NCBI GenBank assembly: GCA_050011875.1
Contig: JBEKIG010000011.1
Coordinates: 64,001-128,000, forward strand
Direction: 5' to 3'
Source of the DNA: Nitrososphaeria archaeon
GTDB taxonomy: Archaea; Thermoproteota; Nitrososphaeria; JACIWG01
Length of the DNA: 64,000 nucleotides
The position numbers were made by a program, and so were the translations under genes. The notes under the pieces were generated by a model. It saw only the letters and a program-made list of their open reading frames with translations, had not been told where the DNA came from and did no database searches. This document shows, piece after piece, positions 25,569 to 62,793 of the stretch; within the stretch, counting starts at the first letter, position 1, and each line of letters begins with the position of its first letter.

Positions 25569-27824
25569 TTATATAATCAAACTTGCCCATTCTTGTTGGA
25601 CCTTTTTTCTTATTTCCTCTCTTAGTTCTCCTAACCAAGACCTTGATCTATGGGATGCCATAGGCTTCTCTTGAAAAACTGAAGGTTGAAAGAACCGTCT
25701 CAGCCGCATCCAATAACATATCACGATACTTTTCTTTGTCTATGTTTACGTGGGAGCTTGCTAGCTCTAATGGTATGACGCGACAGAGAGGGTTGTGGTG
25801 GTCTGAATCCATGTAGATGAAGTTAATGTCTTCGCCAGACTTTACCTGTTTACCTTTGCTTGCGAGTTGGATGGCCGCAGCCACATGTGGAAGTACGCTT
25901 CTATATTTATTCACAGTTTTCCTAAGCGTCTTAGAGACCACCAATTCTTCAAATGGTATATCTCCACCCATAATTTTGTCTATGGTTCTTGTGATGAGAA
26001 GCATGGCGCGCTCATATCCAACGTTGCACACTTCTTCAACAGTCGTACAATCGAATAGGGTTTGAATGAGCTTGGCTTGGAACTCCTTTATGAAGGACGG
26101 CGTGTCATGTCGTCTTAACTCTATTCCTCTAACGATAAGCTCTCCATCATAAAGGACGCCAAAGTAGTGTTTCTGCGCCTCCATATTCAGAGAAGGGTCT
26201 GCCTCCAACGGTAGTAGAAGAAGGAACCTGTAGTGATGATCCAAGGAAATCGGGAGACCTATGAATTTGCTTAGTTGTGCGGCTAGCTGTTCGTAATCTT
26301 CTTTTGTCGCATCATCCTTTTTGACGAAGACAGAATCTGTGTCCGCATATATCAGTTCAAAGCCCTGGCTCTGAACGTAGTCTTTTGTCCTGATCATTAC
26401 CTGCCTAGATTTTCTGTTTATTTCCTCGAAGGCCAGTACGTTGCCGAACCTGTTCCAACAACACCCTGAAGTGCCATAAATGCACACCAAAACCATCTTT
26501 AAAGCACTTTGACGCTGCTCACACCACAGCCATTCCTTGCTTTGTTTGGGAAAGCTCTTACGGAGCCTCTTGAAATATAATCGTCGCTCCAGAACCTTCC
26601 CTGTCACTAATGGGAGTATCGCGTCATCCCTTTTATCCAGTCCTTTTGGACCTACAGTTTCGAAACTTATACATTCTTTGACGATCAGGTTTGGGTACTC
26701 CGATTCATAGTCCAATTCTGCTACGTTGGCGTGCACCTCACCTATTTTGGGAGGGATGATCATACCGCCCCTATCGCGTTCAAAGATCTCCTTCATAGGC
26801 CGAATGTACTCGTAGTAGCCGGTGTTCTTTGGAATCACATAATCCCTTTGAAGTAGTTCATAACAGACGCGGCTGTCGTTGACCCTGTTAGCGGACCACC
26901 TTGCTGCTAAACCAGGTGTAAGAAACCCGAATCGTGAACGTTCGACAAGGCCAGCTATTCCCCACTTATCGTGCAATATGCCATAGGATTCATAGCCGAT
27001 AGCCACTCTTCCTCGCATACAATATGGAAGAGACCTGTTAAAACTATCAGAATCCACATCTTCTCTTCTGAGTTGCATTTTGATGTTCAGCGATCTTGCC
27101 CGTGTCTGCAGGTATGGGAAGGTGAATTTATCACAGTTCTGTGTAACTATGAAATCAGGGTCCTTTTCCTTCACAATCGATTCGAATCCCTTTAGAACCT
27201 CCTCTTCACTTCCTTCGATAAGAGTTTCTTTATCTTCAAATCTTGTTTCTATCGAAGTTATTGGATCAGTTTGAGGGTTTGGAGTTAGAGACGTTGCTCC
27301 GATGTTTATGCCAAAGTGCAGTGTCGTAAAATGTGGAGGCTCTATCTCTTTACTGTCATTAACCTTTCTGATTTCTGACAAGCACCAATTTGTGTCGTAC
27401 AGGAATTCGACTTTGCTGGTCGGTTCAATTTGGAACCTTGTAAATAAATACTGTTGCAGATGTAGAAGATCTATGTTGAAAAGCTCCATCACTTGTTCCT
27501 GCCTTTTAAGGGCCCCTACTATCTGCCTGTAGGCTAAGGCGTCTTCGACGACAACATGGATGAGCCTTTTCTTTTTCTCTTCTCTTAGGTTTGTGTATTT
27601 TTCTACCCAAGTCGTTCTTCTTATGTCCATCTGATTCTGTAGGGCGGATAGAAGCTGTTCACCATCTTCATATGTCTTAGGAAGAATGTAAGGCTTGGAT
27701 GGTAATGGTCTTGGAGCCTGACAACCTTATTGTCTTCTGTTCGAATCCAGATAAAAGCTAAGTCGTCTTCTGTGTAGACGTCAAGGACCCAGCCAACCTC
27801 AGGTACCATTTGGAGCACTTCCAT
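25569..27824 (-). pseudogene. polB2: Family B DNA polymerase, PolB2/Dpo2 group, frameshifted
   Basis: GWVLDVY N-terminus, LDYESEYPNLI, KMVLVCIYG, YADTDS, RGIELRRHD; degenerate exonuclease. Frameshift near 27692 joins 27621-27824 to 25648-27630; probable second shift near 25652. Confidence 0.85.
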
Positions 27825-28161
27825 CTGCTGTGGTAGAGTAGTGCAGTTGAGCTTTAAGTTGGGAAAGTTCCTCTTTAATCTCTTTGATGACCTGCTCCTT
27901 CTCCTCCACCCTCTTTGCGAGAGCTTCGATGAGTTTTCTGTTATGCAGATTCGATGTCAAATTGAGCCGATCGATCACAACAGGAATATTAGAGTTAGCC
28001 ATTGCCGCTTGCTCGCTCTCCCATGCCAGTTTGAGTAGGAGGTCGAATGCCTGCCTGTGGCCTTGATCGACTAAACTGCCTCGATACTGTGATTTGAGCT
28101 CATTAACCGTTTCTTCATAAAGAGTGCGCGCGGAAGGCGTTATTCTACCCATGTTCGTCAT
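27799..28161 (-). CDS. Small helical PolB2-associated protein (arCOG07300-like)
   Basis: MGRITPSAR...HRQAFDLL; immediately upstream of polB2. Confidence 0.75.
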   Translation of the reverse strand: MTNMGRITPSARTLYEETVNELKSQYRGSLVDQGHRQAFDLLLKLAWESEQAAMANSNIPVVIDRLNLTSNLHNRKLIEALAKRVEEKEQVIKEIKEELSQLKAQLHYSTTADGSAPNGT

Positions 28162-29296
28162 CCCTCGTGGTTACATTGATCCTGTTCCTTATTGATTCAA
28201 TGTCTTGAGCGAGCCTTTTAGTTTCATCGTCTATGGTGAGGAAGCGGTTTTGGACGGACTCAATAAGTGCACGAGTGTCCACCGATGCTGTAAGGTTCAA
28301 CCCATCCAAAAGTGTAAATTCCTTTAGGTTGCTTAATGCCTTCTGTTCCATATTCCAAGCTCCCTTAAGCAGAACATCAAACGCAGACCTGTGCCCAAGA
28401 TCTAGGAAATCGTTCTGGAAGAACCTTTTGAGGCGGTCCATCTGCTCACCGTAAAGTTGCTGGAAGGATGAAACGTTCCTTCCTGTCATTAGGTCTAAAG
28501 AACCGGCTTGACTTACATATAGCACTATGGACTCTGGAGTCCTCTTATATGGATGCTTCACAAGCGTTACCTTATAGGATGATATTGGCCCATCGCAGAA
28601 CTTTCTAAAATGAACTAAGATTGAAGCTGCTTGCCTCATGTAGATCCCACCTAACGGCTTGGGAGCCAATACTTTACCTGTATCTATGGCATCAACGGTC
28701 ATAACGAAGGCTACATGGTTTTCAGATGCCGTCCTCCAAAGGTTGCCTACAACCTTCTTCAGAACCTCCTTGGACTCCTTAGGCTTCTTCGAGTTTACAA
28801 GGAAACGTGTGATGTTATGGACTGCGAGAAGCTTAATTTCCTTTTTTTCTCTTATCAAATCTGCAACCTCTTTTGACACAAACCATTGTCTTTCTTCATT
28901 AAATGCTGCCGCTACCTCTACATTTTTGAAGACAAGGGAAGGATCTATACCCACATGCTTCGCTAGCATGCCGAGCCTTGATGGATCAATTAGAGTCTTG
29001 CCGACGTAGTAGTCGGTGTTGTTAAAGTAGACTGCTTTCGCATCAAGGCCACCTTTTTCGGCTGGCATAACACAGTTTACAAGAAGACGATGTATGAGGA
29101 GATCAAGTATCTCTGGCTCACCGTAGAACAGGTAGAAGGACCCTCCTTCAATTCCACCTATCAGGCTATCTAGGTCACCGGAGCCTGTCGTCAGCTTCAG
29201 CCTTTTCCTCTGCTCATCAAAGTCCTCCAGAGTGGTCTGAATAATTGGCATAGGTCTGTCGCCCATCCTGTGGTCGCCTCCAAGGAGAAGGTTCAC
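28145..29296 (-). CDS. Inactivated RadA-like ATPase fused to a second arCOG07300-like domain
   Basis: LTTGSGDLDSLIGG, then degenerate Walker A (FYGEPEILD); PKPLGG; C-terminal GRNVSSFQQLY...GHRSAFDVLLKGAW. Confidence 0.75.
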   Translation of the reverse strand: MNLLLGGDHRMGDRPMPIIQTTLEDFDEQRKRLKLTTGSGDLDSLIGGIEGGSFYLFYGEPEILDLLIHRLLVNCVMPAEKGGLDAKAVYFNNTDYYVGKTLIDPSRLGMLAKHVGIDPSLVFKNVEVAAAFNEERQWFVSKEVADLIREKKEIKLLAVHNITRFLVNSKKPKESKEVLKKVVGNLWRTASENHVAFVMTVDAIDTGKVLAPKPLGGIYMRQAASILVHFRKFCDGPISSYKVTLVKHPYKRTPESIVLYVSQAGSLDLMTGRNVSSFQQLYGEQMDRLKRFFQNDFLDLGHRSAFDVLLKGAWNMEQKALSNLKEFTLLDGLNLTASVDTRALIESVQNRFLTIDDETKRLAQDIESIRNRINVTTRDDEHG

Positions 29297-29322
29297 TTCG
29301 ACCTCTCCCCCCCTTAAGGTAT

Positions 29323-30315
29323 CTAACCTTCTCTGCCCTTCTTTGGCTCCGGATCCTCCACTCCCTTCTCCGATATTACAAAGCGATTTTCTGAATAGGG
29401 ATGATAAGGACTGTCGATAATTGTTGCAATCCTCTCTTGCCCAGCCTTCTTCAAGTAGACCCTGTACGTGCAGGCATGCCCTAAAATGTGTCCTCCAGCA
29501 GGCTTTGTAGGGTCCCCGAAGAACGTGTCCGGCTGTGCTTGAACCTGATTAGTAACTGCTACCGCCACGTTATAGATTTCAGCCATCCTGAGAAGGCGGT
29601 GCACGAGACCGTTCAGCTTCTGCTGTCTCTCAGCCAGCGTCCCTCTTCCCACGAACTCAGCTCTGTGCAAGGATATTATACTATCAACAATGACGAGCTT
29701 GACGTTGTACTGTTCGATGTATTTTCCGAGCCTTTTGACCGCCAGCTCGAGGTGGCTGCTGTTGTAGACCTTGCAGATTATAACGTTCTTGAGAATTTGG
29801 ATTGGGTCTAACCCTCTTGCTTCAGCTATCTGGTAAACCCTCTCTGGGCGGAAGGTGCTTTCAGTATCTATGAAGATCACATTTCCCCCGAATCCACCCT
29901 TCTCTATTGGAAGTTGTGCTGTCACGCAGAGGGTGTGGCAGAGCTGGCTCTTGCCGGAGCCAAATTCACCCCAAAACTCTGTGATAGCCTGAGTCTCAAC
30001 ACCCCCTATGAGCAGGCTGTCAAGGTTCTTCGAACCTGTCGTACACCTAATCATGGACTTTCTCTTCTCATAATTTTCTATTGCTGGAACGAACTCCTTA
30101 TCGATTAAGCCGCTTTCCATCAACGCCTTTTGAGCGACGAATATCATGGCACTCGCATTCTCCTTCGCACCACCGATCTTATCAGCCACTTCATCTGGTA
30201 GGGCGACTGCGAGATCGAGAACAGATTCTATCCCAGCGTCCTTAAGCTTCTTTTCAGTTGACGGCCCAATACCCTCCAAGTCGCGGAGCTCCATATCAAA
30301 TACGGTTACAGACAT
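29323..30315 (-). CDS. radA: DNA repair and recombination protein RadA
   Basis: HhH LEGIGP, FVPA, GEFGSGKSQ, IDTESTFRPER, GRGTLAERQQ, GGHILGH. Confidence 0.97.
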   Translation of the reverse strand: MSVTVFDMELRDLEGIGPSTEKKLKDAGIESVLDLAVALPDEVADKIGGAKENASAMIFVAQKALMESGLIDKEFVPAIENYEKRKSMIRCTTGSKNLDSLLIGGVETQAITEFWGEFGSGKSQLCHTLCVTAQLPIEKGGFGGNVIFIDTESTFRPERVYQIAEARGLDPIQILKNVIICKVYNSSHLELAVKRLGKYIEQYNVKLVIVDSIISLHRAEFVGRGTLAERQQKLNGLVHRLLRMAEIYNVAVAVTNQVQAQPDTFFGDPTKPAGGHILGHACTYRVYLKKAGQERIATIIDSPYHPYSENRFVISEKGVEDPEPKKGREG

Positions 30316-30345
30316 CTTTCTAACCCCTACAAAAAATATTCCATG

Positions 30346-30381
30346 GGACGATATTTATTGGATGAAGGACCTTAGGGGAGA
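30346..30381 (-). promoter_or_regulatory. Duplicated promoter element, copy 1 (upstream of radA)
   Basis: GGACGATATTTATTGGATGAAGGACCTTAGGGGAGA; 35/36 identical to 31461-31496. Confidence 0.85.
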
Positions 30382-30482
30382 GGGGAGGGTGGGTTTAATA
30401 CAGCTTTTCTGGAATGTCATATAATACACGAATAATCCCTCTCTGTAGATATTCTATTATCAGCTAAAGTATATTTTTCGGA

Positions 30483-30665
30483 TTATTCCTTGAACCACTG
30501 AAAATATAGGAAGAAGCCAACGAATATAATAAGTGTCAAAAGAAAGTATCTTTGGGCTTCAGTAATGTCCTGCATTTCATATAAAATTGTGTAGAACCAA
30601 TAAGCTAACGCAACTACTATAGTAACTCCTACACCCCTTTTTGCCCAATTATCTTTTTCAGTCAA
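30483..30665 (-). CDS. Small 2-TM membrane protein
   Basis: 60 aa, two hydrophobic helices, GGAGG upstream. Confidence 0.55.
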   Translation of the reverse strand: MTEKDNWAKRGVGVTIVVALAYWFYTILYEMQDITEAQRYFLLTLIIFVGFFLYFQWFKE

Positions 30666-30684
30666 AATCCTGAACCTCCATCAT

Positions 30685-30870
30685 TTAGAACCTACCTTCC
30701 CCCAATACAAAAGAGATAATGGGAATAGCAAGAATGAAAACAAATAGAATTGTGAAAATATCTGGGAGATTAGGAAGTAGAGGAAAAATCAGTAAAAATG
30801 CAAACAGAATCGCAAGTAGACTTAGCATTTTCCTTTTATTTACCCGATTTTTGGAAATTGTTTGACTCAT
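30685..30870 (-). CDS. Small 2-TM membrane protein
   Basis: 61 aa, basic N-terminus plus two hydrophobic helices. Confidence 0.5.
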   Translation of the reverse strand: MSQTISKNRVNKRKMLSLLAILFAFLLIFPLLPNLPDIFTILFVFILAIPIISFVLGEGRF

Positions 30871-30941
30871 TCAAGTCGCAATATAATATTATATACATGC
30901 AACGTTGGAAAAACTTTTGTAGCATAGTACATGCAACATCG

Positions 30942-31373
30942 CTACTCCCTAACCACAAAAAGCGTTCTTCTAGTCATGGAGTATAGCAATGGACAGACTT
31001 TGCTATTCAATCTATAAAATCGTCCATCCTTTTCGACGAAACCGAATTCGAGCAGCCTCTTCAAAATCCTATAGGCTGTTGTCCTATCACACCTTAATGT
31101 TTCTACTACATCTTTTACCGTAAGATCCTTCGTCATAACCATCGTCCCAACTACGAGGATGGATTTCCACACCCTCTTTCTTCCATAAGAGGCAGCTTTT
31201 ATCAGTATTTGAATTTCATCCGTGAACTTTTTCATCTCGTATGATGGTGGGAGACGTGAATTGAGCTCCTCCCTCATAACTTTAGAAATGACTTTAGAAA
31301 TCCTGCTACTTACCCTATCGGATAAACTGTCTGCTAAACGGTCTACATCTATTTCCCCATTCACTTTCACCAT
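30942..31373 (-). CDS. Winged-HTH transcriptional regulator
   Basis: LTVKDVVETLRCDRTTAYRILKRLLEFGFVEKDGRFYRL. Confidence 0.8.
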   Translation of the reverse strand: MVKVNGEIDVDRLADSLSDRVSSRISKVISKVMREELNSRLPPSYEMKKFTDEIQILIKAASYGRKRVWKSILVVGTMVMTKDLTVKDVVETLRCDRTTAYRILKRLLEFGFVEKDGRFYRLNSKVCPLLYSMTRRTLFVVRE

Positions 31374-31460
31374 TTTCTAATTTCTAGAGGATGGGAGTGA
31401 TACCTGTATCATCATTCATGCTTATTGCCATCTTTCTGACCTCCACAAAAACATCCTAGA

Positions 31461-31496
31461 GGACGATATTAATTGGATGAAGGACCTTAGGGGAGA
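31461..31496 (-). promoter_or_regulatory. Duplicated promoter element, copy 2 (upstream of wHTH gene)
   Basis: GGACGATATTAATTGGATGAAGGACCTTAGGGGAGA. Confidence 0.85.
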
Positions 31497-31518
31497 AGGT
31501 GGGGTTAACACCGTCTTT

Positions 31519-31803
31519 CTAAATATACTCCGACTCCTTGAAGAAACCGTATAGAACCCGGACTACGGGGTTGTCTAGGTTGATCTGGTACCTGAGGTGT
31601 ATGGCCCTAAGCTCCTTTACCCAGTTGATGTTGGTAAGGTGCCTGAGGTTCTCGTTCAGATCGCTTCGCTTTAGCCCTGTACCCTTTATGAGGGAATATT
31701 TGGTGAGGGATTCGTTAGGTTTCTTGGCCAACTCTGCCATAACCTTTATCCTGCCTATTGTTCCAAGGCCCTCCTCAATTTCTCTTTTACGATTGACGTA
31801 CAT
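31519..31803 (-). CDS. Small archaeal wHTH protein overlapping the cdc6 3' end
   Basis: GRIKVMAEL...LTKYSLIKGTGLKRSDLNENLRHL...YQINLDNP. Confidence 0.75.
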   Translation of the reverse strand: MYVNRKREIEEGLGTIGRIKVMAELAKKPNESLTKYSLIKGTGLKRSDLNENLRHLTNINWVKELRAIHLRYQINLDNPVVRVLYGFFKESEYI

Positions 31804-32983
31804 TCAGCCCAGTCTCCAACCGGTTGAACAAACTATCCAAGAAGAGTCCAAGGTTTTCTGTTGGCACACCGCTTATGCCTATCTCTTTGAGAGAACGTAT
31901 TTCGATTATCCGCCTGTCGTGTAGGTCCTGAAGGTAGTCGTCAAGGTCCTCAGTTGGCTTAAGGTGCATGTCTTCACATATCATCCCACAATTGAGACGT
32001 ATATCCCTCATTGAGGTGTAGGTCTTCCTCGTGTTTCTGAGCGATTTGACCACAGCGAGAAGTGCTATAAGGTGCTCCTTTTTGGGGAGGTTCAGAATAT
32101 CTTCTTCTGTGATCGAAGGATGAGTTTCCCCGTGCACTCTGCGGACATGGTCTGGCAGAATCTGTTCAGCTCCCTGGTTCTCTGCTAGGTTACCTGAATA
32201 TAGAAGTAGGTCAAGGGCATATCTTAGGTCACCGTTCACAGGAGAGCTTACCGTTAAGTCTGCTACATATTCTAGAACTTCATCCGATACAACTCTCTGC
32301 TGAAAAGCCTCCTTGACTCTGTCAGCTAGGATGTCAACGATCTCAATGGAAGTATAGGAGGAGAACTCTATTGGAATCCTACCGAGTGTGCTAAGTTCGG
32401 CTCGATCAAGCCTTTCTTGGAAGTCCTTGCTTCTTGCAGTGAAGATAACACCTAACACGTTACATGGTTTTCCCAACTCAATTTCGTTGAGACGGGTTAG
32501 ATCATAAACCACGCCAGTATCCTTTGTACTCCTTATGAAGTAGTCAATTTCATCAAGTGAAATCAGCAGGTATCTTTTCCTCTCTCGAAGCTGTCGGAGC
32601 ATCACCCGCAACATTTCTTCTGCACTCAGACTGGAGGAGTATACCTCAGGAGCCCCAGCTTCCAAAAGGTACCTGTACAGCACTACTCTGCTTCCGCCTT
32701 GAAGCTTCAGGTTAACGTAGACATGTCTAATATCACGCTTCAGTTTCGCAGCGTCCTGCTCAAACCTCTGACCGAACCGGAGAACGCTGCTCGTCTTTCC
32801 GGAGCCAGCTGGTCCAACTATCTGAATAATCTTCAAGAGCGCTCTAGAAGGATCAGCCAAGGCTTCTCTGAAGGAATTGTAAAGGCTTTCAATCTGTTTC
32901 TCACGATGTGGCAAGATTAATGGTACATAGCGAGGAGACAGTTTCTCCCTATCCTTAAAGATCTTACTTTGAGCTCCTATCAA
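31787..32983 (-). CDS. cdc6: Orc1/Cdc6 family AAA+ ATPase
   Basis: IFKDREKLSPRYVP..LPHRE, GPAGSGKT, LDEID, GDLRYALDLL. Start set at TTG 32983 after GGTGGT. Confidence 0.92.
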   Translation of the reverse strand: MIGAQSKIFKDREKLSPRYVPLILPHREKQIESLYNSFREALADPSRALLKIIQIVGPAGSGKTSSVLRFGQRFEQDAAKLKRDIRHVYVNLKLQGGSRVVLYRYLLEAGAPEVYSSSLSAEEMLRVMLRQLRERKRYLLISLDEIDYFIRSTKDTGVVYDLTRLNEIELGKPCNVLGVIFTARSKDFQERLDRAELSTLGRIPIEFSSYTSIEIVDILADRVKEAFQQRVVSDEVLEYVADLTVSSPVNGDLRYALDLLLYSGNLAENQGAEQILPDHVRRVHGETHPSITEEDILNLPKKEHLIALLAVVKSLRNTRKTYTSMRDIRLNCGMICEDMHLKPTEDLDDYLQDLHDRRIIEIRSLKEIGISGVPTENLGLFLDSLFNRLETGLNVRQS

Positions 32984-33351
32984 ACCACCAACTAGTATAC
33001 TATTCAAAGATAATATCTTTTTAAACACGACTATGTTGTGTAAAGTTCTTGGCTTCAATACACTGTTTTTCCTGCTCAGAGGTAGATCCATCCCACTTTT
33101 CCTTCGATTCCTTGAATGTTCACCCTACGCGGTGTTTTCAGTCGAAATGAGCCGAGAAATACTGTCAGAAACAAACATAAACAAAAAGCAAGAATCAATA
33201 GGCCAAGAGGGCTCATGGGCAAACACGCCAACTAAAAAAACTAGCTAACATTGCTTAAACACATATTTCCTTAGTCTTTCTCCTTCTGTCTTCTCAATTT
33301 TTACTTCTAAAACCAGTAAATGAATTCTTTCAATGCCATTACAAATGAAAG

Positions 33352-33915
33352 TTATTTTCCTCTCCACGACCCCCTACTTGTTACGCTCACGCGAAGCTTA
33401 GAGAAGTCTTCTCTGATCCTAACATCAAAACCCATTGAGTTCAAGAGTGTCAGCAAGAACCTCTTGACGAACTCTTTCGAAGATTCCGACAGCAGAACGA
33501 GGGTGAACTCCCTATCCGATAGCTTAATTGTCTTAAAGAAATTGCAAGCCTCTAAACGTTCGAAGACGTTTTCTAAGGAGTTCCCTTTTGTAGCAAACTG
33601 TTCTGCGTGGGATTTCGCGATTTCTTCGTTATTTTGCCAGAAAACGTCCTTTTGAGAGGAAGTTTCGATCAGTTTAAGAAAGAGCAGCCAGTGGTCCATA
33701 TCAAGAATTACATGTTCCCCGCTGGAAAGCATATCTAGGTAAATGCCCAGTTTATTGAGCGTCTTATCCCCTGCCATTTCTCTGTACTCTTTTAAGAACC
33801 TGATCGCTTTTCTCACTAGTTCGCTTTGGGAGATTTTAAGTTCGTCTTTCATCTCTTCAAGTAGTCTAGCTGTGTCTTCATCAAGTGCACATGTTACTCT
33901 AATAGGAACAGCCAT
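33352..33915 (-). CDS. Ribbon-helix-helix (CopG-like) regulator with C-terminal ligand-binding domain
   Basis: RVTCALD...SQSELVRKAI; EHVILDMDHW. Confidence 0.8.
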   Translation of the reverse strand: MAVPIRVTCALDEDTARLLEEMKDELKISQSELVRKAIRFLKEYREMAGDKTLNKLGIYLDMLSSGEHVILDMDHWLLFLKLIETSSQKDVFWQNNEEIAKSHAEQFATKGNSLENVFERLEACNFFKTIKLSDREFTLVLLSESSKEFVKRFLLTLLNSMGFDVRIREDFSKLRVSVTSRGSWRGK

Positions 33916-34326
33916 ATAATACCAACTCCATAGTGCGGAAGGCTACTAGAAAGTGAAGTGCGGGTAGGATTCATGCTTATGTGATCACGCTGATAGTTGT
34001 ATTTCGTATTCCATCTTACTCCTTGCCATCCTGTTGCACAATTGAATCTGAGAAATGGGAGTTCACGAACTCCATGCATATATTCTCTGCTCTCTTGAAC
34101 GGAGTCGTTCTCCCTTCTTGCCATATTCAATGTCTCTTATTGAGCATTATTTAAGGTTATAGGAGATTTTCCGAGCAATATACATATGAAATGCTTAGAA
34201 CTATGTCATAACGATAGAAAAAGTGGAAGCACGACATGTGGGGAGAATCTTAAACTGGCACCTTGCTATCGACTAGCTTATTGTAGCATTCCTCAAAACT
34301 GTGCAACCATTAAGAAAATGCGCCAC

Positions 34327-34782
34327 TTATCCAGAGAAATTGTCGTAAAAGGAAGGATACGATTTGATGAGGACAAGATTAATGCGGAGCACATTCACGT
34401 AAGGGCTTCCGAAAATCCATAAAGTACCCTCTTCATTTTGGTTAACTAGGGCAATCAGCGAATTGGCTGAGATACCGGTTGCATTACTTATTCGCGGTAT
34501 CTGTGAGTAGGCATCTTGAATAGTGATATCCGGATCAACTCCTGAAGCAGAATCATTCCGTGCATGAAAGAAAATGGGCAAAGAAAAATTTTGAGAAATC
34601 AAGTTTGATCCAATCGCCCGTCCATTGACCTTCACAATCTCGCCGTTTGCTTGATACGGAAAAAATACTTGAGCTAGCGCGGTTATGAGAAGAGGGAAAA
34701 GCATACCACAAATTATCAGCGAAACAACTGCAAGAGTAACAATCGGTCTGAAACTCCATTTTTCCTTTTTTTCCAAACCCAT
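34327..34782 (-). CDS. kdpC: K+-transporting ATPase subunit C
   Basis: FPYQANG, GSNLISQ, SASGVDPDI, VNVLRINL. Confidence 0.92.
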   Translation of the reverse strand: MGLEKKEKWSFRPIVTLAVVSLIICGMLFPLLITALAQVFFPYQANGEIVKVNGRAIGSNLISQNFSLPIFFHARNDSASGVDPDITIQDAYSQIPRISNATGISANSLIALVNQNEEGTLWIFGSPYVNVLRINLVLIKSYPSFYDNFSG

Positions 34783-34794
34783 TTTCCATCATCC

Positions 34795-36975
34795 CTAAAC
34801 GTGGAAAACTCCTGTGAGAAGCAGGTCGATCAGCTTAATTCCTACGAAAGGCACGATGACGCCGCCAACACCATAAATCAACGCATTCTTCAGGAAAAGG
34901 GTCATGGTATCGGTAGGCTTGAACTCGATGCCTCGCATCGCAAGAGGGATCAGCAATGGTATGATGATCGCATTAAATATCAATGCAGACAAGACAGCGC
35001 TCTTTAGCCCAAGATGGAGTATGTTCAACGCCTGAAGTTGGGGAATGGCAGCACCAAACAGAACAGGCATTATAGCGAAATATTTTGCAACATCATTAGC
35101 AATGCTGAAAGTAGTAACAGCCCCACGGGTCATAAGCAATTGTTTCCCCAGCATGATGACGTCAATTACTTTTGCAGGATTAGATTCCAAATCAACCATG
35201 TTCGCAGCTTCTTTCGCTGCCTCAGTCCCAGAATTCATGGCCAGACCTACATCAGCAACCGAAAGGGCTGGAGCGTCATTAGTACCATCACCTATCATAG
35301 CTACAATAAGACCTTCAGCTTGCTCCTTTTTGGCGATGCTGAACTTGTTCTCAGGCTTCGCCTGGGCCACGTATTCATCGATTCCGACCTCATGCGCAAT
35401 GCTCTTTGCGGTCAAAGGCTGATCTCCGGTAATCATAACCGGACGTATCCCCATGGTTTTGAGAGCTTCTATTTTCTCCCTAATGCCTTCCTTGAGAACA
35501 TCCTTCAAGCGAATGACTCCGATGGCTTTGCCGTTCCGTGCGATGGCTATCGGTGTTTCCCCAGCCATTGAAATCTTCTCCACTAACGTGTCATAATTGG
35601 TAGGAACGGAAGGCAAAAGTTTCTTTATCGATTCCGGGGCACCCTTTATTATTTCGATTTCAGGTTCGGGAATAGAAGCAGCTGCTTTGGTTGCTGAGGA
35701 AGATTTTCTCCTGATTCGAAGCCTTTCGTCAATAGATTTGCCACCCTTCAGCAGCTTCATACCCAAGTGTTGAGTTATCTGCACTCCGCTGGTCCGCGTA
35801 CTAGCTGAGAATGGCTGAACTCTCGACGTTGACAGAGCATTTATTTCGTTGGGCACCCAGCCTCTTTCGTACGCGAGTCTAAGGATACTGCGCCCCTCAG
35901 GCGTATCGTCGTGCCAAGACGAGAGAAAAGCTGCTTCACCTACATCACGTTCGGTAAATCCTTCAAGCGGTATAAATTCGATTGCCAGCCGGTTCCCTAC
36001 AGTAATTGTGCCGGTTTTATCCAGACATACAACATCCGTATCTCCTGCAGTCTCAATAGCCTTGCCTGACTTTGCAATAATCTTATGCTTGTACAAACGG
36101 GACATTCCTGACAACCCAATTGCAGGCAATAATGCACCTATTGTTGTCGGCAGAAGGCAAACGTAAAGCGCTATGAGAACTGAAAGATCAGCATTAAGAC
36201 GAAGCGTAACAGACATTCCAAGCAACGCCACTATTATTATAGTGAAAATCGCAGTTAGACCAATTAGAACGATAGTAACTGCTACTTCGTTGGGCGTTTT
36301 TGGTCTCTTCGAAGACTCGACCATCTTTATCATCTGATCGATGAAAGTATCACCAGGGTTCGTAGTCACCTTCGCCGTCAAAGTATCACTAACCACTCGT
36401 GAACCACCAATCAACGCGTCCCCAGGCGCTTTCCTTACTGGCGCGGATTCGCCCGTGACGAGTGATTCATCTATCATAGCAATTCCCTCAAGAACATGAG
36501 CGTCCAAGGGAACTACGTCACCTTTCTCGAGAGCTATCAGATCGTCCTTTCTGAGCTCAGTTGATTTCACAGTGATAACTTTTCTAGCCCAATCCTCGGT
36601 CAAGATTTTCTTGCTAAGCACTTCTGTTTCTAGCTTGCGTAAGCTTCCAGCCGTTTGTTTTGCCTGTTGCTCCGCAAGGGCATCCGACAGGGTACTAAAC
36701 CAGACCGTAATAAGAAGGATGGCGGCTATTTCAACGTAGAAGATTTGCAGACTTGGACTCGCAACGGGCATAAAGGCCTTAGGAACAATAGCCATTGCCG
36801 CCACGATGAAGAATGTTATTTCGACGATCAGCATGACAGGATTCTTGACCAGCGACTTTGGACTTAGTCGGACTATTGAGTCAACCAGCACCTTTCTTGA
36901 AAAAGCCGATTTCAATCCTCCGGAAGCTGAATCTCTCTTCCGTGGTTCGATCTTAGAGGCATTACCCATAGCCAT
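34795..36975 (-). CDS. kdpB: K+-transporting P-type ATPase subunit B
   Basis: KNPVM, TGESAPV, LPTTIG, DKTGTIT, GDGTNDAPAL, TTFSIANDVAKYF. Confidence 0.97.
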   Translation of the reverse strand: MAMGNASKIEPRKRDSASGGLKSAFSRKVLVDSIVRLSPKSLVKNPVMLIVEITFFIVAAMAIVPKAFMPVASPSLQIFYVEIAAILLITVWFSTLSDALAEQQAKQTAGSLRKLETEVLSKKILTEDWARKVITVKSTELRKDDLIALEKGDVVPLDAHVLEGIAMIDESLVTGESAPVRKAPGDALIGGSRVVSDTLTAKVTTNPGDTFIDQMIKMVESSKRPKTPNEVAVTIVLIGLTAIFTIIIVALLGMSVTLRLNADLSVLIALYVCLLPTTIGALLPAIGLSGMSRLYKHKIIAKSGKAIETAGDTDVVCLDKTGTITVGNRLAIEFIPLEGFTERDVGEAAFLSSWHDDTPEGRSILRLAYERGWVPNEINALSTSRVQPFSASTRTSGVQITQHLGMKLLKGGKSIDERLRIRRKSSSATKAAASIPEPEIEIIKGAPESIKKLLPSVPTNYDTLVEKISMAGETPIAIARNGKAIGVIRLKDVLKEGIREKIEALKTMGIRPVMITGDQPLTAKSIAHEVGIDEYVAQAKPENKFSIAKKEQAEGLIVAMIGDGTNDAPALSVADVGLAMNSGTEAAKEAANMVDLESNPAKVIDVIMLGKQLLMTRGAVTTFSIANDVAKYFAIMPVLFGAAIPQLQALNILHLGLKSAVLSALIFNAIIIPLLIPLAMRGIEFKPTDTMTLFLKNALIYGVGGVIVPFVGIKLIDLLLTGVFHV

Positions 36976-38620
36976 TCACCAACCCTTTAAAGAATGACGA
37001 AATCGGCCCTAATGCCAAGAATGGGAAGAAAGTCAAAACAACCAGTATGATGATGCTTGCGACTAGGACTATAGTGAATATTGGGCTGTCAGTCCTTAGA
37101 CCTGATGTACCGCCACGTTTTCTCCCAATCATTGAGCCCGAGAGCGCAAGAAGGATCATGATGGGAACATAACGCCCAATGAAAATAACTATGGCAGTGC
37201 TCAGGTTGAAGAAGAGAGTGTTTCCTGATGCCCCCAAGAAATCGGAACCGTTGTTTGCAGCAGCTGTCGTAAATTCATACAAAATTTGAGTGTATCCAGT
37301 AGAGCTACCGCTCACGCCGATAGCCGAAGCCGCACCTGAAGCATATGCGACAACAGTAGGGATCAGGATAATAATTGGGTGGATTAGAAAAGTTATCATA
37401 ACAAGCAGCACATCTCGCCCAGTGATCTTAATTTCCAAGTATTCAGGCGTTCTACCGGACATGAGACCCACAATGAAGACAGTTATGATAATGAACATCA
37501 CCATGTACATCATGCCAACACCCTTTCCGCCAGGGATCGACTGAACGAACATGCCCATGAACGCCGAAACTATCACCAGCGGATGCATCGCCGACAACGA
37601 AGAGTTTACAGACCCAGTCGTAAAGGCAGTAGTTATGACAGTCCAAAAAGTGGACATGAAACCTCCAAACCTCGTTTCAATACCAGGCGCAACGAGTGGA
37701 ATGCTCGGAAAGGAGGCTATCGCTAAATTAACTCCGATAAGAATCAACGCACCCCACAAAAGAGGCCTAGATTCCCGTCTCTTACCAAGCAACTCTCCGA
37801 AAACAAAACACAAAGCAAAAGGAAGCAGCATCATCAATGCAATCTCAAATATGTCTGAGTAAGGGCTCGGATTCATGAATGGATAGGCAGCGTTCGCGCC
37901 ATAGTACCCGCCGCCGTTGGTCCCCAACTGCATAATTGACGTAAGGCTCGCCACAGGCCCGATAAGGATCGATTGTGTGGTTCCTTCAACGGTTTTCACA
38001 GCAGAGTAGGCATTAAGACTTTGGGGAACACCCATTGCGACAAGAATAACTGAAGCAATAATGCAAAGGGGCAAAAGGATTCTGGTGATGGTTCTAACAA
38101 AGTCAACAAAGAAGTTCCCCATATCTTTGGAACCTACGATGAAACCCCGTACCATGGCGATTCCCATGCATATGCCAGTCGCAGCAGAGATCCATTGAAG
38201 AAATTGAATGGCAGTCATCTGACTAAAAATAGAAAGCGTGGTTTCACCATTGTAATGTTGAAGATTCGTGTTTGTGGCAAACGAGACAACCGTGTTAAGG
38301 GCCAAATCCCAACTTAGGCCAGGAAAGCCTTGAGGATTAAGAGGCAAGTGGCCTTGAAAAACTAAGATTAAAAAGCCAATTACCATTTGTGTGACGTTAA
38401 GCAGAAGGCCAGAAAGGAAGTACTGCTTCCAGCCCATCACCTGGTCAGGGTTCACACCGCCCATTTTGTAAATAAAGTTCTCAACAGGACTAAGTATCTT
38501 ATCTAAACGGTTTGGAGATCGGGTGTAGACTCGCGTTATGTACGGCGCAATCAGCTTCGCAAGAGCCACAGTCACGCCGAGTATCAATACTACTGCCAGA
38601 ACTTGAACTGCATCTATCAA
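36962..38620 (-). CDS. kdpA: K+-transporting ATPase subunit A
   Basis: TNTNLQHY, LGTNGGG, GRTPEYL, AANNGS. Confidence 0.96.
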   Translation of the reverse strand: MIDAVQVLAVVLILGVTVALAKLIAPYITRVYTRSPNRLDKILSPVENFIYKMGGVNPDQVMGWKQYFLSGLLLNVTQMVIGFLILVFQGHLPLNPQGFPGLSWDLALNTVVSFATNTNLQHYNGETTLSIFSQMTAIQFLQWISAATGICMGIAMVRGFIVGSKDMGNFFVDFVRTITRILLPLCIIASVILVAMGVPQSLNAYSAVKTVEGTTQSILIGPVASLTSIMQLGTNGGGYYGANAAYPFMNPSPYSDIFEIALMMLLPFALCFVFGELLGKRRESRPLLWGALILIGVNLAIASFPSIPLVAPGIETRFGGFMSTFWTVITTAFTTGSVNSSLSAMHPLVIVSAFMGMFVQSIPGGKGVGMMYMVMFIIITVFIVGLMSGRTPEYLEIKITGRDVLLVMITFLIHPIIILIPTVVAYASGAASAIGVSGSSTGYTQILYEFTTAAANNGSDFLGASGNTLFFNLSTAIVIFIGRYVPIMILLALSGSMIGRKRGGTSGLRTDSPIFTIVLVASIIILVVLTFFPFLALGPISSFFKGLVNGYG

Positions 38621-38730
38621 TTATTCCCAAACTCCAAAGTCTAGCAAACCAGTTCACTATGGCTCCCTTCCTCCATTATAGCAGCGATATTGATCTTAAC
38701 ATTTTGATCTCCGCCTCATTAATCAAGAAA

Positions 38731-39018
38731 TCAAACTAACGTTAACCGTGACATTTCCTCTACACATTTTGGCCCTTTATGAGCCTTGAGAACAATCGAG
38801 CTAACCGTGCTTTTGACACCTTTAATCTTCATTATCTTATTCTTCAGGACGTCCCTGAACTCTTCTATGTCATCCGCGGAAACGAGAATAACAATGTCTT
38901 CTTCACCCGTTACCTCATAAAGCTCTTCGAGATTTTCAGGCAGCTTTAAAGATGATATGACATTATCCATTTCAGTAGATTCCACGAAGATATCAACGAA
39001 AGCTAAGAGTTTTGGCAT
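38731..39018 (-). CDS. Lrp/AsnC ligand-binding-domain protein (copy 1)
   Basis: LYEVTGEEDIV, KIKGVKSTVSSIVL; no HTH. Confidence 0.85.
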   Translation of the reverse strand: MPKLLAFVDIFVESTEMDNVISSLKLPENLEELYEVTGEEDIVILVSADDIEEFRDVLKNKIMKIKGVKSTVSSIVLKAHKGPKCVEEMSRLTLV

Positions 39019-39050
39019 TTTAGGTCATCATCATTGTTTTTATTAGTATA

Positions 39051-40082
39051 TATGCTTTCATTCTTTTCTCCTCATTGATTTACTTTCCATCCCTTTTCGT
39101 TTGTGAGTTTTGGCATTTTAGTTCACTATCATTGCCATAATGGGCATATTGTACCCATATTTATCCTTTAATGTTTGGCGTGGTAGATTTGCTTTGGACG
39201 CTTGTGATAATAGGTTCTGTAGCTGTAATAACAATAAAGCTGCGTACCGAAATCAAAAATGATATTTGACCATGATAACTCATCATCTATTTGAGTTGGC
39301 CTCTAGCCAACACCAGTTTTTTAAAAAAAACCGCTTGGTAGATTTTAAAGAACAAAACTATGAAGGTAAACACCCTTTTCGGTTTTTTTCCCACAGCATG
39401 TCTTTCCTCAAATGATGCATAGGGAATGCTTTTTGCATTCTTCTTTGAAAAAATCTTCTTCAATAATTTTTAATGATGATATGTTTCCATGACAGTACTG
39501 CAATGACCCTCAACTCATGCATTTCTGGGAAAATCTTAGCCACCAAGATTTCCTTATACTTTGGCTAGCAACCAACTATGAATGGTTCTGTTCTGAAAAA
39601 CGTAAGGCGCTAGAAGCCCACATATTTTAGAAAAATAGAAGTGGGATTGTCTGAGAATTTTCACAGAGACCCCAATTGTACTGGCTGAATCGGCTTGGGA
39701 CTCGTTTGAAAGCTACTCCCAGATAACTGCTTGAAGGTTAAACAGGTGTTAGTACAATAGATGTTTCCGTGCGAATGACGTCTGGGTCTTTTTCGACTAC
39801 CCTGTACACTATTTGGTTTATGTTCTCAAGGGCAGGGGCCTCAATAATCATGACTGCATCGTATTGGCCAAATATGGCATCTGCTGAGATCATTTCTTTG
39901 GTTTTCTCTTTTATTCTCTTGACTACTTCCAACGAGGTTCCAGGTTTTGTTCTTATTAGAATGTATGCTTTCATTCTTTTCTCCTCATTGATTTACTTTC
40001 CATCCCTTTTCGTTTGTGAGTTTTGGCATTTTAGTTCACTATCATTGCCATAATGGGCATATTGTACCCATATTTATCCTTT
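39051..40082. repeat. 119-bp exact direct repeat (39051-39169 and 39964-40082)
   Basis: Compared base by base. A variant of its right half lies at about 42649-42712. Confidence 0.92.
39738..39974 (-). CDS. Lrp/AsnC ligand-binding-domain protein
   Basis: MKAYILI...IFGQYDAV...VIRTETSIV. Confidence 0.85.
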   Translation of the reverse strand: MKAYILIRTKPGTSLEVVKRIKEKTKEMISADAIFGQYDAVMIIEAPALENINQIVYRVVEKDPDVIRTETSIVLTPV

Positions 40083-40221
40083 GAATTGGTGAGCATAATA
40101 ATGGAGGGAATTGTAATTTTCCTATTGGAAAAGATAGAGACAGATGAGGCGCTAGCTGCGAGATGCGCAGGAAGAATACCCTGCGTTTTCTTTCAAGAGG
40201 AAATTTTAGAGGCTAAAAAAG

Positions 40222-41784
40222 ATGGCAAGTGACACGACAAGTATTCAAAACCAGCAGCCCTCTAAGATGAAGAAGACCCTGAGCCTTGCAGGTTTAACGA
40301 TTAATGCCATGGCTTTAATAGCTCCAGGTGCGTTCTTGTGGATCACAATCCAGGTTCAGGCGGCTCAGAAAGACCCTGCCGGATTCTCAACAGCGTCCGA
40401 CATATGGTTCGGGCTCTTAGTAGCTTTAATCTTATCATTTTTAACCGCTGCCTCGTATGCTTGGCTGTCCAAACGTTATCCAGAATCCGGCGCCGGAAGT
40501 TCATATTATTTTGCTCAAAGAGCCTGGCTTGATCGAGGCAGCAGCAACCGTTCAGCGCGCAACGCCAAATTCGCTGTAGGCTGGCTTTCCCACCTCTATT
40601 ACTGGGTTTACCCAGGCGTGATGGTGGCATTCATGGCTGTCCTATTGTCATGGGTCTTACAGACACTAGGTTTCGCCGTTTCTCCATTCGCCCAGATAGC
40701 GATTGCATTTGCGTTTGCAACCGTAACCGGTTACATAGCCTACCGCGGAATACAGGGATCAACGAAGACAAACCTACTTCTCAACATTGTCCAGCTCACT
40801 ATGCTGGTGGGGGTTACAATAATGGCACTAGCCTATCGTTTCCTTAACCCCAATTTAAGCTTCGAGTTCTCCAACATCGGCAGCATAGTTATTCCCCACA
40901 ACGCTAGCCACGTATTGTTTCAAGCAACTATCGCCATACTTGTATTGGTAGGATTTGAAACAGCCACAGCTTTGACAGCAGAAGCAAAAAACCCTAAGGA
41001 TGTTCCAAGAGCAGTAGTCCTCTCACTCGCAATACAAGGAGCCTTTGCATACCTATTCGCATACTTCGGATTCCTAGCATGGATTTCTAAAGATGGGTTA
41101 GCGGCGGCTGCAGCATCAAGTGCTCCTTATGGAGACATGGTCCGCAATCTTGGAAACGTATTCTTTGGCGGAAACGGTTTCATTCTCATGATGATAGTCG
41201 CAGTAGTCGTTCTTGCGGCAATTCTCGGTACCACTCTCGCTTGCATGAACACAGGCGTGCGAGTTACCTATGCCATTAGCAGCGACACAGAAGTCCCTCG
41301 GCAGCTAAGCAAGATGAACCCACAGTACGCCACTCCAGGAGTAGGGATCTGGGTGATGACTCTGATTTCAGCGATTATCGGTGCCTTCGGTGCCCTTTCC
41401 GTTATAAATTTAACAGCGATTTGTTTACTTTCAAACGTTGGTACTTTCATACTCTACGGGCTGACGAATTTCGTGGCGATGCTTGCCTTTGCTAAAGAGC
41501 GCAGTTCAATCCTAAAACGCCGAATAGTTCCCCTTCTTGGCCTTAGCGCAAACGTCCTGATGCTTGGCGTCGTCGTTTGGCTCGGTTTGCTTGGTGGGGG
41601 AGACTCAGCTTGGGAAGCGTTATTTGCACTGGCTGGCACAGCAATTTGGTTACTTCTAGGCTTGGTATACTTCCGGGTAAACTCGAGAACACAGTCCTCC
41701 CCATTGTTCCCATTCCCAGGCTTGGAGCCAACAAACGACAAGAAAACGAGATACACAACAAGGAAAGATCAAGGGGGATTTTGA
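40222..41784 (+). CDS. APC superfamily permease
   Basis: About 12 TM segments; PESGAGSSYYF, LVGFETATALTAEAKNP, RVTYAIS, YATP. Confidence 0.9.
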   Translation: MASDTTSIQNQQPSKMKKTLSLAGLTINAMALIAPGAFLWITIQVQAAQKDPAGFSTASDIWFGLLVALILSFLTAASYAWLSKRYPESGAGSSYYFAQRAWLDRGSSNRSARNAKFAVGWLSHLYYWVYPGVMVAFMAVLLSWVLQTLGFAVSPFAQIAIAFAFATVTGYIAYRGIQGSTKTNLLLNIVQLTMLVGVTIMALAYRFLNPNLSFEFSNIGSIVIPHNASHVLFQATIAILVLVGFETATALTAEAKNPKDVPRAVVLSLAIQGAFAYLFAYFGFLAWISKDGLAAAAASSAPYGDMVRNLGNVFFGGNGFILMMIVAVVVLAAILGTTLACMNTGVRVTYAISSDTEVPRQLSKMNPQYATPGVGIWVMTLISAIIGAFGALSVINLTAICLLSNVGTFILYGLTNFVAMLAFAKERSSILKRRIVPLLGLSANVLMLGVVVWLGLLGGGDSAWEALFALAGTAIWLLLGLVYFRVNSRTQSSPLFPFPGLEPTNDKKTRYTTRKDQGGF

Positions 41785-41854
41785 TAGCCTTCGATAAACA
41801 TCCTTATTCTTCTTTTGTTCGTGAAAACCATTACAATACGTTTCTTTTTTGGTG

Positions 41855-41890
41855 TACATCTATTTCCCCATTCACTTTCACCATTTTCTA
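41855..41890. repeat. 36-bp exact copy of 31344-31379
   Basis: TACATCTATTTCCCCATTCACTTTCACCATTTTCTA at both positions, same orientation. Confidence 0.92.
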
Positions 41891-42660: not shown

Positions 42661-42805
42661 TTTAGGTCATCATCATTGCAATAAAGGGCATATGGATCGA
42701 TATTTATCCTTTCTAGATACTCTAAGTCTAGGAATTAACAATCTTGCGGCCAATGACTTGGAGATGGATGTTCATTGATTTATAGTTCCGAACCTTTTGG
42801 TTATT

Positions 42806-42822
42806 AATCCCCCTAGGCCCGC
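42806..42822 (+). repeat. Copy of the tRNA-Lys 3' end (att-like)
   Basis: AATCCCCCTAGGCCCGC vs AATCCCCCCAGGCCCGC at 14781-14797; 16/17 identical. Confidence 0.7.
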
Positions 42823-62790: not shown

Positions 62791-62793
62791 CTC

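Follow-up and report, generated by a model that had tools for sequence, protein, structure and literature searches.

The stretch of DNA considered here (the window) is 64,000 nucleotides (nt) long, corresponds to C11:64001-128000 of a 2.64 Mb, 97%-complete genome (coded G000 in the comparisons below), and comes from an uncultured, peat-associated member of the class Nitrososphaeria. It contains a string of genes that ends in polB2, the gene for a B-family DNA polymerase. In order of transcription the string encodes an Orc1/Cdc6 paralog, a 94-amino-acid (aa) winged-helix protein (wH94), a TrmB-type helix-turn-helix (HTH) protein, two small membrane open reading frames (ORFs), a full-length RadA paralog (RadA2), an inactivated RadA (iRadA) fused to the small, predicted helical protein PPB2, a free PPB2, and PolB2. 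All were found by an ORF list combined with Pfam and NCBIfam scans, and all lie in the same direction on the minus strand, as do the promoter elements given below. The original prediction had counted nine co-oriented genes; their presence and direction stand, and the count becomes ten ORFs because polB2 is split, a 67-aa ORF encoding its N-terminus. Intergenic gaps and a duplicated promoter suggest at least three transcription units rather than one operon. The polymerase core is tight, with a 17-nt overlap between the iRadA-PPB2 and free PPB2 genes and a 26-nt overlap between free PPB2 and the N-terminal part of polB2. The locus is present in contigs from peat and soil metagenomes. Taken as a whole, it is probably a PolB2 mutasome module of the published kind (translesion polymerase, iRadA and PPB2), extended by RadA2, a Cdc6-winged-HTH (wHTH) pair and a C-rich promoter box, the whole forming a putative damage-induced circuit. 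The core is already known; the RadA paralog, the pair of Cdc6 and its ArsR-fold partner, and the box are the additions.

The window polymerase is assigned to the B family by its Pfam matches (DNA_pol_B, 6e-33; exonuclease domain, 2e-11). Its gene spans 25648..27824 and is split into a 67-aa N-terminal ORF (27621..27824) and a 660-aa ORF (25648..27630). Motifs were aligned to PDB 5mdn by way of the 96%-identical ortholog from G001, the same-genus genome used as the closest comparison, rather than with the window protein, whose sequence was read directly. The aspartates of what we take to be polymerase motifs A and C are kept, and by this feature the module belongs to the deep-branching form that keeps its polymerase aspartates. 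What is presumably exonuclease motif I reads FDIN in G001 and FGIN in the window, the Glu being lost in both and the Asp also in the window; judged by these residues, the 3'-5' exonuclease site of the window PolB2 is disrupted. No match to a Y-family (IMS-family) polymerase was found in the 97%-complete genome, which would leave it with PolB2 as the sole specialised polymerase. A further PolB2-like group, more divergent (27-33% identity), is common in the ammonia-oxidiser families and was found in 56 of 401 genomes of the class; at its loci (L122-L136, e.g. G183:C1:2152718-2172717) a short RadA-like gene lies about 0.5 kb upstream and a DUF72 gene is often nearby.

The gene directly upstream of free PPB2, at 28145..29296, encodes 383 aa. 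Its Rad51 match (4e-18) covers residues 31-232 only, and no N-domain is present. BLASTP aligns it with RadA2 across the whole ATPase core at 28% identity, the GSGKS stretch of Walker A being missing and the Walker B aspartate being changed to histidine. Residues ~272-380 form a second copy of PPB2 (34% identity to the free protein, E 2e-20). Read from these matches, the gene encodes iRadA fused to PPB2, and a free PPB2 comes next. A dead RadA followed by a helical protein had been predicted; the loss of Walker A and B is borne out, and the description as a plain RadA is not, since the C-terminus is a PPB2 copy. When scored with hidden Markov models (HMMs), iRadA is about equally close to housekeeping RadA (71 bits) and to RadA2 (66 bits), so that no signal ties it to RadA2. 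Free PPB2 (27799..28161) is 120 aa long from its first ATG, and its true start is likely the fourth codon, from which an MGRITPSAR arm runs. It aligns with the PPB2 of 13 relatives and matches no Pfam or NCBIfam family. An N-terminal MGRT arm of PPB2 is described in section 3.3.1 of PMC11791011.

Much of this arrangement is in print. Makarova et al. 2014 (PMC4104785) described an operon of PolB2, an inactivated RadA and arCOG07300 with an arORC2 gene nearby, for which a replication-related role was proposed. In the work of Timinskas et al. 2025 (PMC11791011) the partners received the names iRadA and PPB2, and a pentamer of PolB2-iRadA-PPB2(3) was modelled; the authors also recorded fused iRadA-PPB2 and duplicated PPB2 among the variants, placed DxD-intact PolB2 of TACK archaea near the root, and reported orc1/cdc6, SRAP and DUF72 genes to be enriched near polB2. 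The window agrees with these accounts in gene content and order (iRadA-PPB2-PolB2), a B-family polymerase with a dead exonuclease, a RadA core lacking N-domain and ATPase motifs, a PPB2 with an MGR(T/I) arm, an iRadA-PPB2 fusion together with PPB2 duplication, the intact DxD of deep-branching TACK forms, and an orc1/cdc6 gene nearby. It differs in having a full-length RadA with intact motifs as an extra gene of the string, the fusion alongside free PPB2, a fixed ArsR-fold partner for Cdc6, and a conserved C-rich box in the promoter. The full linkage had been thought undescribed; since PolB2-iRadA-PPB2 and the orc1/cdc6 enrichment are published, what the main-text sections covered here lack is the active RadA, the wHTH partner and the promoter box. 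Main sections 3.1-3.3, the Discussion and the passages on RadA of Timinskas et al. mention no full RadA as part of the string, no joint occurrence of fusion and free PPB2, no ArsR-fold partner of Cdc6 and no C-rich box; the supplementary tables of that work may list RadA as a neighbour. In the sections of the literature covered by the search, no PolB2 operon is described as having either an active RadA or a promoter box; in those of PMC13707971, RadA is mentioned only in another context. The PolB2 mutasome is so far a structural prediction and, according to a 2026 review, awaits experimental verification. One or two DUF72 genes adjoin the module at several loci (L076:5532-7661, L077:164-1969, L101:12840-14033, L200:11857-15223), either transcribed divergently from RadA2 or placed upstream of cdc6; a DUF72 gene in G464 may be fused to the cdc6 reading frame. 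These cases are in line with the enrichment of DUF72 found by Timinskas et al.

The split of polB2 bears on whether the module works in this strain. The 67-aa ORF encodes the usual PolB N-terminus in another frame, with the frame change near 27689/27690, and the G001 ortholog is a single ORF of 743 aa. Contigs of two runs that are possibly the source runs (depth 7.9 and 36) match the window at the frameshift, and in a different study a strain of ~96-97% identity has an additional base behind 27689. Because the two contig sets agree with the window and the related strain is one base longer, polB2 carries a real 1-nt deletion and not an assembly slip. As a consequence the polymerase in this strain either lacks its first ~65 residues or is not produced. 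The module here could then be a decaying remnant with PolB2 inactivated, from whose local arrangement no function can be read. Besides the deletion, present in both contig sets and absent from the related strain and G001, the loss in the window of an exonuclease motif I Asp that G001 keeps fits such decay, and a relative coded G008, described below, shows that loss occurs. However, all other genes of the string are intact, 85-98% identical to those of G001 and without stops; the 660-aa ORF starts at an ATG overlapping the stop codon of the 67-aa ORF, which would allow re-initiation; the decaying gene would be that of the genome's only specialised polymerase; and decay would concern this strain alone and not the nature of the system. 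A decaying remnant is a serious possibility, if the less probable one.

The linkage itself recurs widely. The neighbourhoods of species-representative genomes were mapped with HMMs built from the first loci, giving 51 loci with a PolB2 of the same clade, 48 of which had enough upstream DNA to judge an adjacent RadA; this table does not include G002, whose PolB2 is truncated at a contig end and which has RadA2 as well. A nearest-genome set of 40 relatives was used in addition, nine carrying the same PolB2 clade and 31 without it. The full co-oriented order cdc6-wHTH-RadA-iRadA-PPB2-PolB2 is present at five of the 51 loci (G000, G001, G057, G464 and G724, spanning four family codes), and the joining of a regulator-type Cdc6, a recombinase and a PolB2 module that had been predicted is therefore found both here and in relatives. 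A full-length RadA lies co-oriented just upstream of iRadA in 27 of the 48 informative loci across the phylum, and cdc6 is present in 20 of the 51, being unlinked in some relatives. Since the same genes recur together in dozens of genomes of other species, the linkage is not due to chance.

RadA2 (29323..30315, 330 aa) matches Rad51 (8e-88), HHH_5 (5e-6), NF003301 (405 bits, cut-off 259) and TIGR02236 (383 bits, cut-off 361). When aligned with 20 linked and 7 housekeeping RadAs, its helix-hairpin-helix (HhH) N-domain, polymerisation motif, Walker A and B, and L1 and L2 are intact, and by these motifs it is a full-length, working-looking recombinase. The polymerisation motif, Walker A/B and L1/L2 are kept in all linked RadAs; one family (code f7) has lost the HhH N-domain. 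The window's genome holds two full RadA genes, RadA2 and C4:76541-77500, which are 50% identical. A second full-length RadA is found in six of the nine PolB2-carrying relatives (G001, G002, G010, G012, G035 and G038), and a RadA2-type copy was the only one found in G003, a 68%-complete genome. In the 31 relatives that lack this PolB2, no second full-length RadA occurs, bar one 31%-identical, stop-containing match. Across the window's own genome and the 40 relatives, RadA2 is present only in genomes carrying the module. Of the five genomes checked outside the class, each has two or three RadA-type matches, and one match per genome is linked; the second match in G561 is a contig-end fragment.

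In an IQ-TREE analysis of 35 rows, 25 housekeeping RadAs are split from 10 linked ones at 99/98, and the Nitrososphaeria RadA2 is, on this tree, a paralog group separate from housekeeping RadA. In a phylum-wide tree of 38 rows, from which six long-branched f7 copies, G001 and G050 were left out, 18 of the 21 linked RadAs fall on one side of a branch supported at 88/91, with a 15-row core at 98/91. The linked RadAs of G724, G464 and G485 group with the RadAs of their own lineages, and linkage of RadA to the module therefore arose more than once. An RPA-like gene with an oligonucleotide/oligosaccharide-binding (OB) fold accompanies the string in four lineages, between RadA2 and iRadA in G003 (L036:9188-10909) and G325 (L111:7100-8941), and directly upstream of iRadA in G399 (L110:6147-6953) and G741 (L213:3528-4607). 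Its product is 360-614 aa long and matches no Pfam family; an NCBIfam RPA/SSB-type match (NF005554, 3e-18) covers residues 37-219, and the protein may be a module-specific single-strand-binding protein.

RadA2 could alternatively be a historical neighbour, iRadA having arisen by tandem duplication of radA and the intact copy serving as a spare recombinase for ordinary homologous recombination. The alignment of iRadA with RadA2 across the whole ATPase core, the near-equal HMM scores, the lack of an adjacent RadA in 21 of the 48 informative modules and the poor model of PolB2 with active RadA (PMC11791011) would all be in line with such a relic. However, every recombinase motif is kept across many families, RadA2 is retained in a tight string with gaps of -35 to about 200 nt, and it is confined to module-carrying genomes. 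Linkage formed at least twice from different RadA lineages, unlike what a passive relic would show, and an RPA-like OB-fold gene lies in or beside the string in four lineages. A relic RadA2 is, on this evidence, unlikely. Two further RadA-like frames were noted: the housekeeping RadA of G010 (C6:90094-91830) is one 596-aa frame in which the RadA match is broken after ~residue 123, where there may be an intein, and C43:2246-3154 of the window's own genome holds a 461-aa RadA-like frame matched in two separated stretches.

The Orc1/Cdc6 paralog (31787..33091) is 434 aa long from its first ATG, though relatives suggest a start ~36-40 codons further in. It matches Cdc6_lid (7e-21) and TIGR02928 (201 bits, cut-off 181.3), and Cdc6_C at only 0.003; its AAA+ motifs are conserved, and 18 orthologs share the Walker A motif G-x-x-G-x-GKT without variation. 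Contig C10 carries the genome's canonical initiator, which scores 350 bits against the Orc1-1-type chain PDB 2qby_A, compared with 104 bits for the window Cdc6; the third Cdc6_lid match in the genome is RFC. In a quick IQ-TREE analysis of 44 sequences, which held no named Orc1-2 reference sequences, 19 linked or cognate copies and one other form one group with a Shimodaira-Hasegawa-like approximate likelihood ratio (SH-aLRT) of 100, separate from the canonical Orc1-1-type group (12 rows, 100) and from other second copies. The window Cdc6, as placed by this tree and these scores, is of a clade of its own, distinct from the genome's origin-type Orc1-1. The best solved relative of the window Cdc6 is 1fnn (122 bits), which another clade of second copies also prefers. 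An Orc1-2 label for the clade by way of solved structures was tried and not established; the copies of G737 and G672 are not close to the solved Sulfolobus proteins.

The Cdc6 paralog nearly always has a partner. The gene for wH94 (31519..31803), which overlaps the cdc6 stop by 17 nt, follows cdc6 in 18 of the 20 cdc6-holding loci and also follows unlinked cdc6 genes in G003, G035, G010 and G008. The window protein matches no Pfam or NCBIfam family; one ortholog gives weak HTH_20/HTH_5 matches at about 5e-5. Its model (predicted local distance difference test, pLDDT, 93.8; predicted template modelling score, pTM, 0.85) has ArsR/SmtB-family repressors (SmtB, CzrA, PagR, ArsR) as its top 20+ Foldseek matches (template modelling score 0.67-0.76, E down to 1.5e-4), and wH94 is, by its modelled structure, of the ArsR/SmtB-type winged-helix fold. 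Cdc6 orthologs of 41-97% identity were found in G001, G002, G003, G010, G023, G035 and G038, unlinked from the module in G003 (176 kb away) and in G010 and G035 (another contig). The Cdc6-wHTH pair is present in the window's genome and in seven of the nine module-carrying relatives, linked or not, and is absent from the 31 module-less relatives except for a pseudogene in G008, the others having only ~30% Cdc6 matches. The two proteins, nearly always paired, co-occur with the module whether adjacent to it or not. At the G008 locus (L146, C77:1-2703), in a genome without the PolB2 module, cdc6 is broken by three stops, a wHTH gene is present, and a perfect C-rich box with TATA points toward the contig end; this locus looks like a decaying remnant of the system.

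In the window, the regulator pair and the RadA2 unit are separated by further genes. Directly after the wH94 stop lies a second copy (31411..31505) of the RadA2 promoter and start region (30295-30390), a direct repeat of ~95 nt, 73-85% identical, with a spacing of 1115-1116 nt. This upstream copy now precedes the TrmB-type HTH gene and contains a degenerate box (31490-31504), a TATA-like element (31467-31474) and a 15-codon remnant ORF. Between the two copies (30483-31373) are the gene for the 143-aa TrmB/IclR-type HTH protein (30942..31373; Pfam TrmB 1e-7) and two ~60-aa hydrophobic membrane ORFs (30685..30870 and 30483..30665), of which homologs occur only in G000 and G001 among all mapped loci. 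G057, G464 and G724 have the uninterrupted order cdc6-wHTH-box-RadA-iRadA-PPB2-PolB2. On account of the flanking repeat, the genus-only homologs and the uninterrupted order elsewhere, the HTH gene and membrane ORFs look like a recent 1.1-kb, genus-specific insertion that duplicated the promoter and stands outside the conserved system. The second wHTH protein, predicted to be a member of the cassette, is accordingly better left out of it. The inserted HTH protein is TrmB/Lrs14/Sta1-like, with a weak NCBIfam Sta1 match (28 bits against a cut-off of 80). In S. solfataricus, Sta1 reportedly switches on a damage-inducible radA paralogue (PMC2175319).

The promoter of the RadA2-iRadA-PPB2-PolB2 unit (30352..30393) consists of a degenerate C-rich box (30375-30393), a 15-nt spacer and a TATA-like element, AATAAATA (30352-30359), ~37 nt before the RadA2 ATG. 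In relatives the box is sharper, C5-6-T-C5-6 (consensus C6-T-C6), followed after 15-19 nt by TTAAATA, ATAAATA or TATATAT. A strict pattern was defined as two C-runs of at least 4 nt, separated by no more than 2 nt and lying in the 260 nt before the first module gene. It is present at 21 of 47 non-edge loci, compared with 0.9% expected per interval of that size from the background of the same loci (binomial p about 2e-30, a significance overstated by the relatedness of the loci). Degenerate boxes, in the window, G001, G003, G042, G068 and G088, are not counted among the 21. The same layout with 16-nt spacing occurs in G183, a complete 2.8-Mb ammonia-oxidiser-family genome with the divergent PolB2 type that lies outside the survey.

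Within the window's own genome, box and TATA are combined only at the RadA2 promoter and its local duplicate. A pattern scan for box plus TATA gave three matches when loose and one when strict, only the RadA2 promoter having the box-spacer-TATA layout; the C-run pattern has five matches genome-wide, one at the locus; and a 19-nt promoter word, with up to 4 mismatches allowed, has good matches only in the two local copies. The box also tracks the Cdc6 clade, which is present in 15 of 17 strict-box genomes of known status and in 11 of 24 without a strict box (Fisher p = 0.008). Six of those 11 have a degenerate box, and counting degenerate boxes as positive gives p = 4e-5, the genomes in both tests not being independent. 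In both co-oriented and divergent layouts the box is in the short spacer between regulator pair and operon. Its fixed distance of 15-19 nt to TATA suits a transcription factor site, and its position upstream of TATA fits activation better than repression. Palindromic operators between box and TATA were not above shuffles (arms of at least 4 in 4 of 20 spacers, p about 0.10). A sigma-70/terminator scan likewise gave nothing above shuffles, its models not being applicable to archaea.

The box could instead be a structural element or the site of another factor, with Cdc6 acting, for example, in clamp or helicase loading at stalled forks. It is a 13-bp homopurine/homopyrimidine mirror repeat, pyrimidine on one strand and G-rich on the template strand, and such a sequence can adopt non-B DNA. 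G012 has the box and no Cdc6 of the clade, five Cdc6-linked loci have no strict box, and a replication-related role for arORC2 is what Makarova et al. (PMC4104785) proposed. Against this, a strict box occurs in only two of 15 clade-negative genomes, it sits in the spacer between regulator and operon at a fixed distance from TATA, and an Orc1/Cdc6 paralog has been shown by experiment to activate dpo2 in S. islandicus (PMC6061795). That the box is something other than an operator of the Cdc6-wHTH pair appears improbable, with an appreciable chance of being right.

The last-named case is the closest precedent for the regulatory reading. Sun et al. 2018 (PMC6061795) found that Orc1-2 of S. islandicus activates dpo2 through an ANTTTC element and that its regulon is large. 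The two systems are alike in having a non-initiator Orc1/Cdc6 paralog with a polB2/dpo2 operon, damage-inducible in Sulfolobales, and a short element near TATA, which is the known target there and the presumed target here. They differ in the element (C6-T-C6 here, ANTTTC in S. islandicus), in the extent of the target set (a single locus in the window's genome, a large regulon there) and in the wHTH partner of Cdc6 here.

Orc1/Cdc6 genes are usually found beside origins, and the paralog could mark a secondary origin or an integrated extrachromosomal element carrying the repair genes as cargo. The module is patchy, being present in four of nine genomes of the window's family, its flanks differ among relatives, and IS605-type genes flank it in G038. 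The DNA around cdc6 speaks otherwise. As predicted, no ORB-like (origin recognition box) repeat array flanks the gene (31.8-33.4 kb), the only repeat family there being the promoter duplication, and cumulative GC skew has no turn at it. Nor does the window support the idea of a portable module: none of its 70 ORFs scanned matches an integrase or transposase family, its sole tRNA, a tRNA-Lys at 14723, is ~11 kb away from the locus, and the GC content of the locus resembles that of its surroundings. In addition, the Cdc6 paralog is often inherited together with the module without being linked to it, and the patchiness includes decay in place, as in G008 with its pseudogenised cdc6 and leftover box. 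An origin or integrated element is thus very unlikely.

The flanking DNA holds a ThuA gene and a molybdate-type ABC transporter on one side and a ribbon-helix-helix (RHH) protein gene and KdpCBA on the other. Compared with G001, the window has ~10 kb extra (33100-43200) between cdc6 and a CBS-domain gene, encoding the RHH protein, KdpCBA, Lrp/AsnC-type regulators and an amino-acid permease; the CBS, thioredoxin and SnoaL genes (here 43181-47515) are in G001 a few kb upstream of cdc6, with one methyltransferase gene between. A 40-nt repeat (31340-31379 and 41851-41890, 97.5% identical) spans the ribosome site and first 11 codons of both the TrmB-type HTH gene and a 62-aa ORF (41769-41957, minus strand). 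Branch points in metagenome contigs come from this repeat, and a rearrangement considered at the loose contig ends at 31340-31379 is accounted for by it. Elsewhere in the window are an aldehyde:ferredoxin oxidoreductase gene (11155-12915) and a cluster of NiFe-hydrogenase, heterodisulfide-reductase-like and FlpD genes (59466-63970), whose presence suggests an anaerobic lifestyle without ammonia oxidation for the host.

A mechanism can be proposed on the analogy of the Orc1-2 activation of dpo2 in Sulfolobales. The Cdc6-wHTH pair would act on the C-rich box and turn on the RadA2-iRadA-PPB2-PolB2 unit after DNA damage. RadA2 would coat the single-stranded gap and, by analogy with RecA* and Pol V, could offer either template switching or a filament for the iRadA-capped polymerase complex, and the PPB2 trimer could be built from the fused copy and free copies. 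E. coli Pol V mutasome consists of UmuD'2C-RecA-ATP and is activated on RecA* filaments. Like it, the PolB2 system combines a translesion polymerase with a RecA-family subunit and a small accessory protein, and a locus with RadA2 encodes, in addition, a candidate active filament-former. The polymerase here is of the B family instead of the Y family, the RecA-family subunit bound to it is a dead paralog dedicated to that role, and no LexA or UmuD-type self-cleaving protein is part of the PolB2 system. The Pol V mutasome is also the parallel drawn by Timinskas et al., in place of the ImuA-ImuB-DnaE2 analogy of the original prediction. The likeness to the latter, a damage-tolerance polymerase encoded with an inactive RecA-like protein, is functional only; the window has no Y-family-like ImuB and no C-family DnaE2, and its genome no IMS-family gene.

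Several observations weigh against reading the locus as such a circuit. The frameshift in polB2 may mean that the system is decaying in this strain. The 21 of 48 modules with no neighbouring RadA make RadA2 dispensable for the core complex, and active RadA was modelled poorly with PolB2 (PMC11791011, section 3.3.2). At 26 of 47 loci the strict pattern finds no box, and the box in the window is a degenerate one; G012, a 91%-complete genome, has a strict box and no Cdc6 of the clade was found in it, and G561, G531, G741, G050 and G325 have an adjacent Cdc6 and no recognisable box. The window Cdc6 also gave no match at E <= 0.001 to the solved ORC2 chain 1w5s. With these points taken into account, an extended PolB2 mutasome module with its putative damage-induced circuit is still the probable reading of the locus. 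A wider form of it, to which only a low likelihood can be given, is that across the Thermoproteota the mutasome is the output of a self-contained, LexA-free circuit. Cdc6 and its ArsR-fold partner would read the box 15-19 nt upstream of TATA and switch on one operon, which in its fuller form would also encode RadA2 and in some cases the RPA-like protein. A RadA2 filament would load or activate the polymerase complex, as a counterpart of RecA*-Pol V assembled independently at least twice.

The locus and its relatives offer handles on damage sensing and the control of mutagenic synthesis in archaea outside Sulfolobales, in a sharply defined promoter box open to mutation or use as bait, a two-protein candidate regulator travelling with the operon, and a dedicated recombinase; with these additions the regulation of archaeal translesion synthesis outside Sulfolobales becomes directly testable. 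A dedicated active recombinase could explain the dead RadA subunit in the complex. Should the link between regulator and box fail, the locus would be one more member of a published operon family. Should it prove true, the Cdc6 paralog would be a second, differently wired case of an Orc1/Cdc6 protein turned transcription factor, and damage-inducible genes of uncultured archaea from soil and peat would have a marker in the box.

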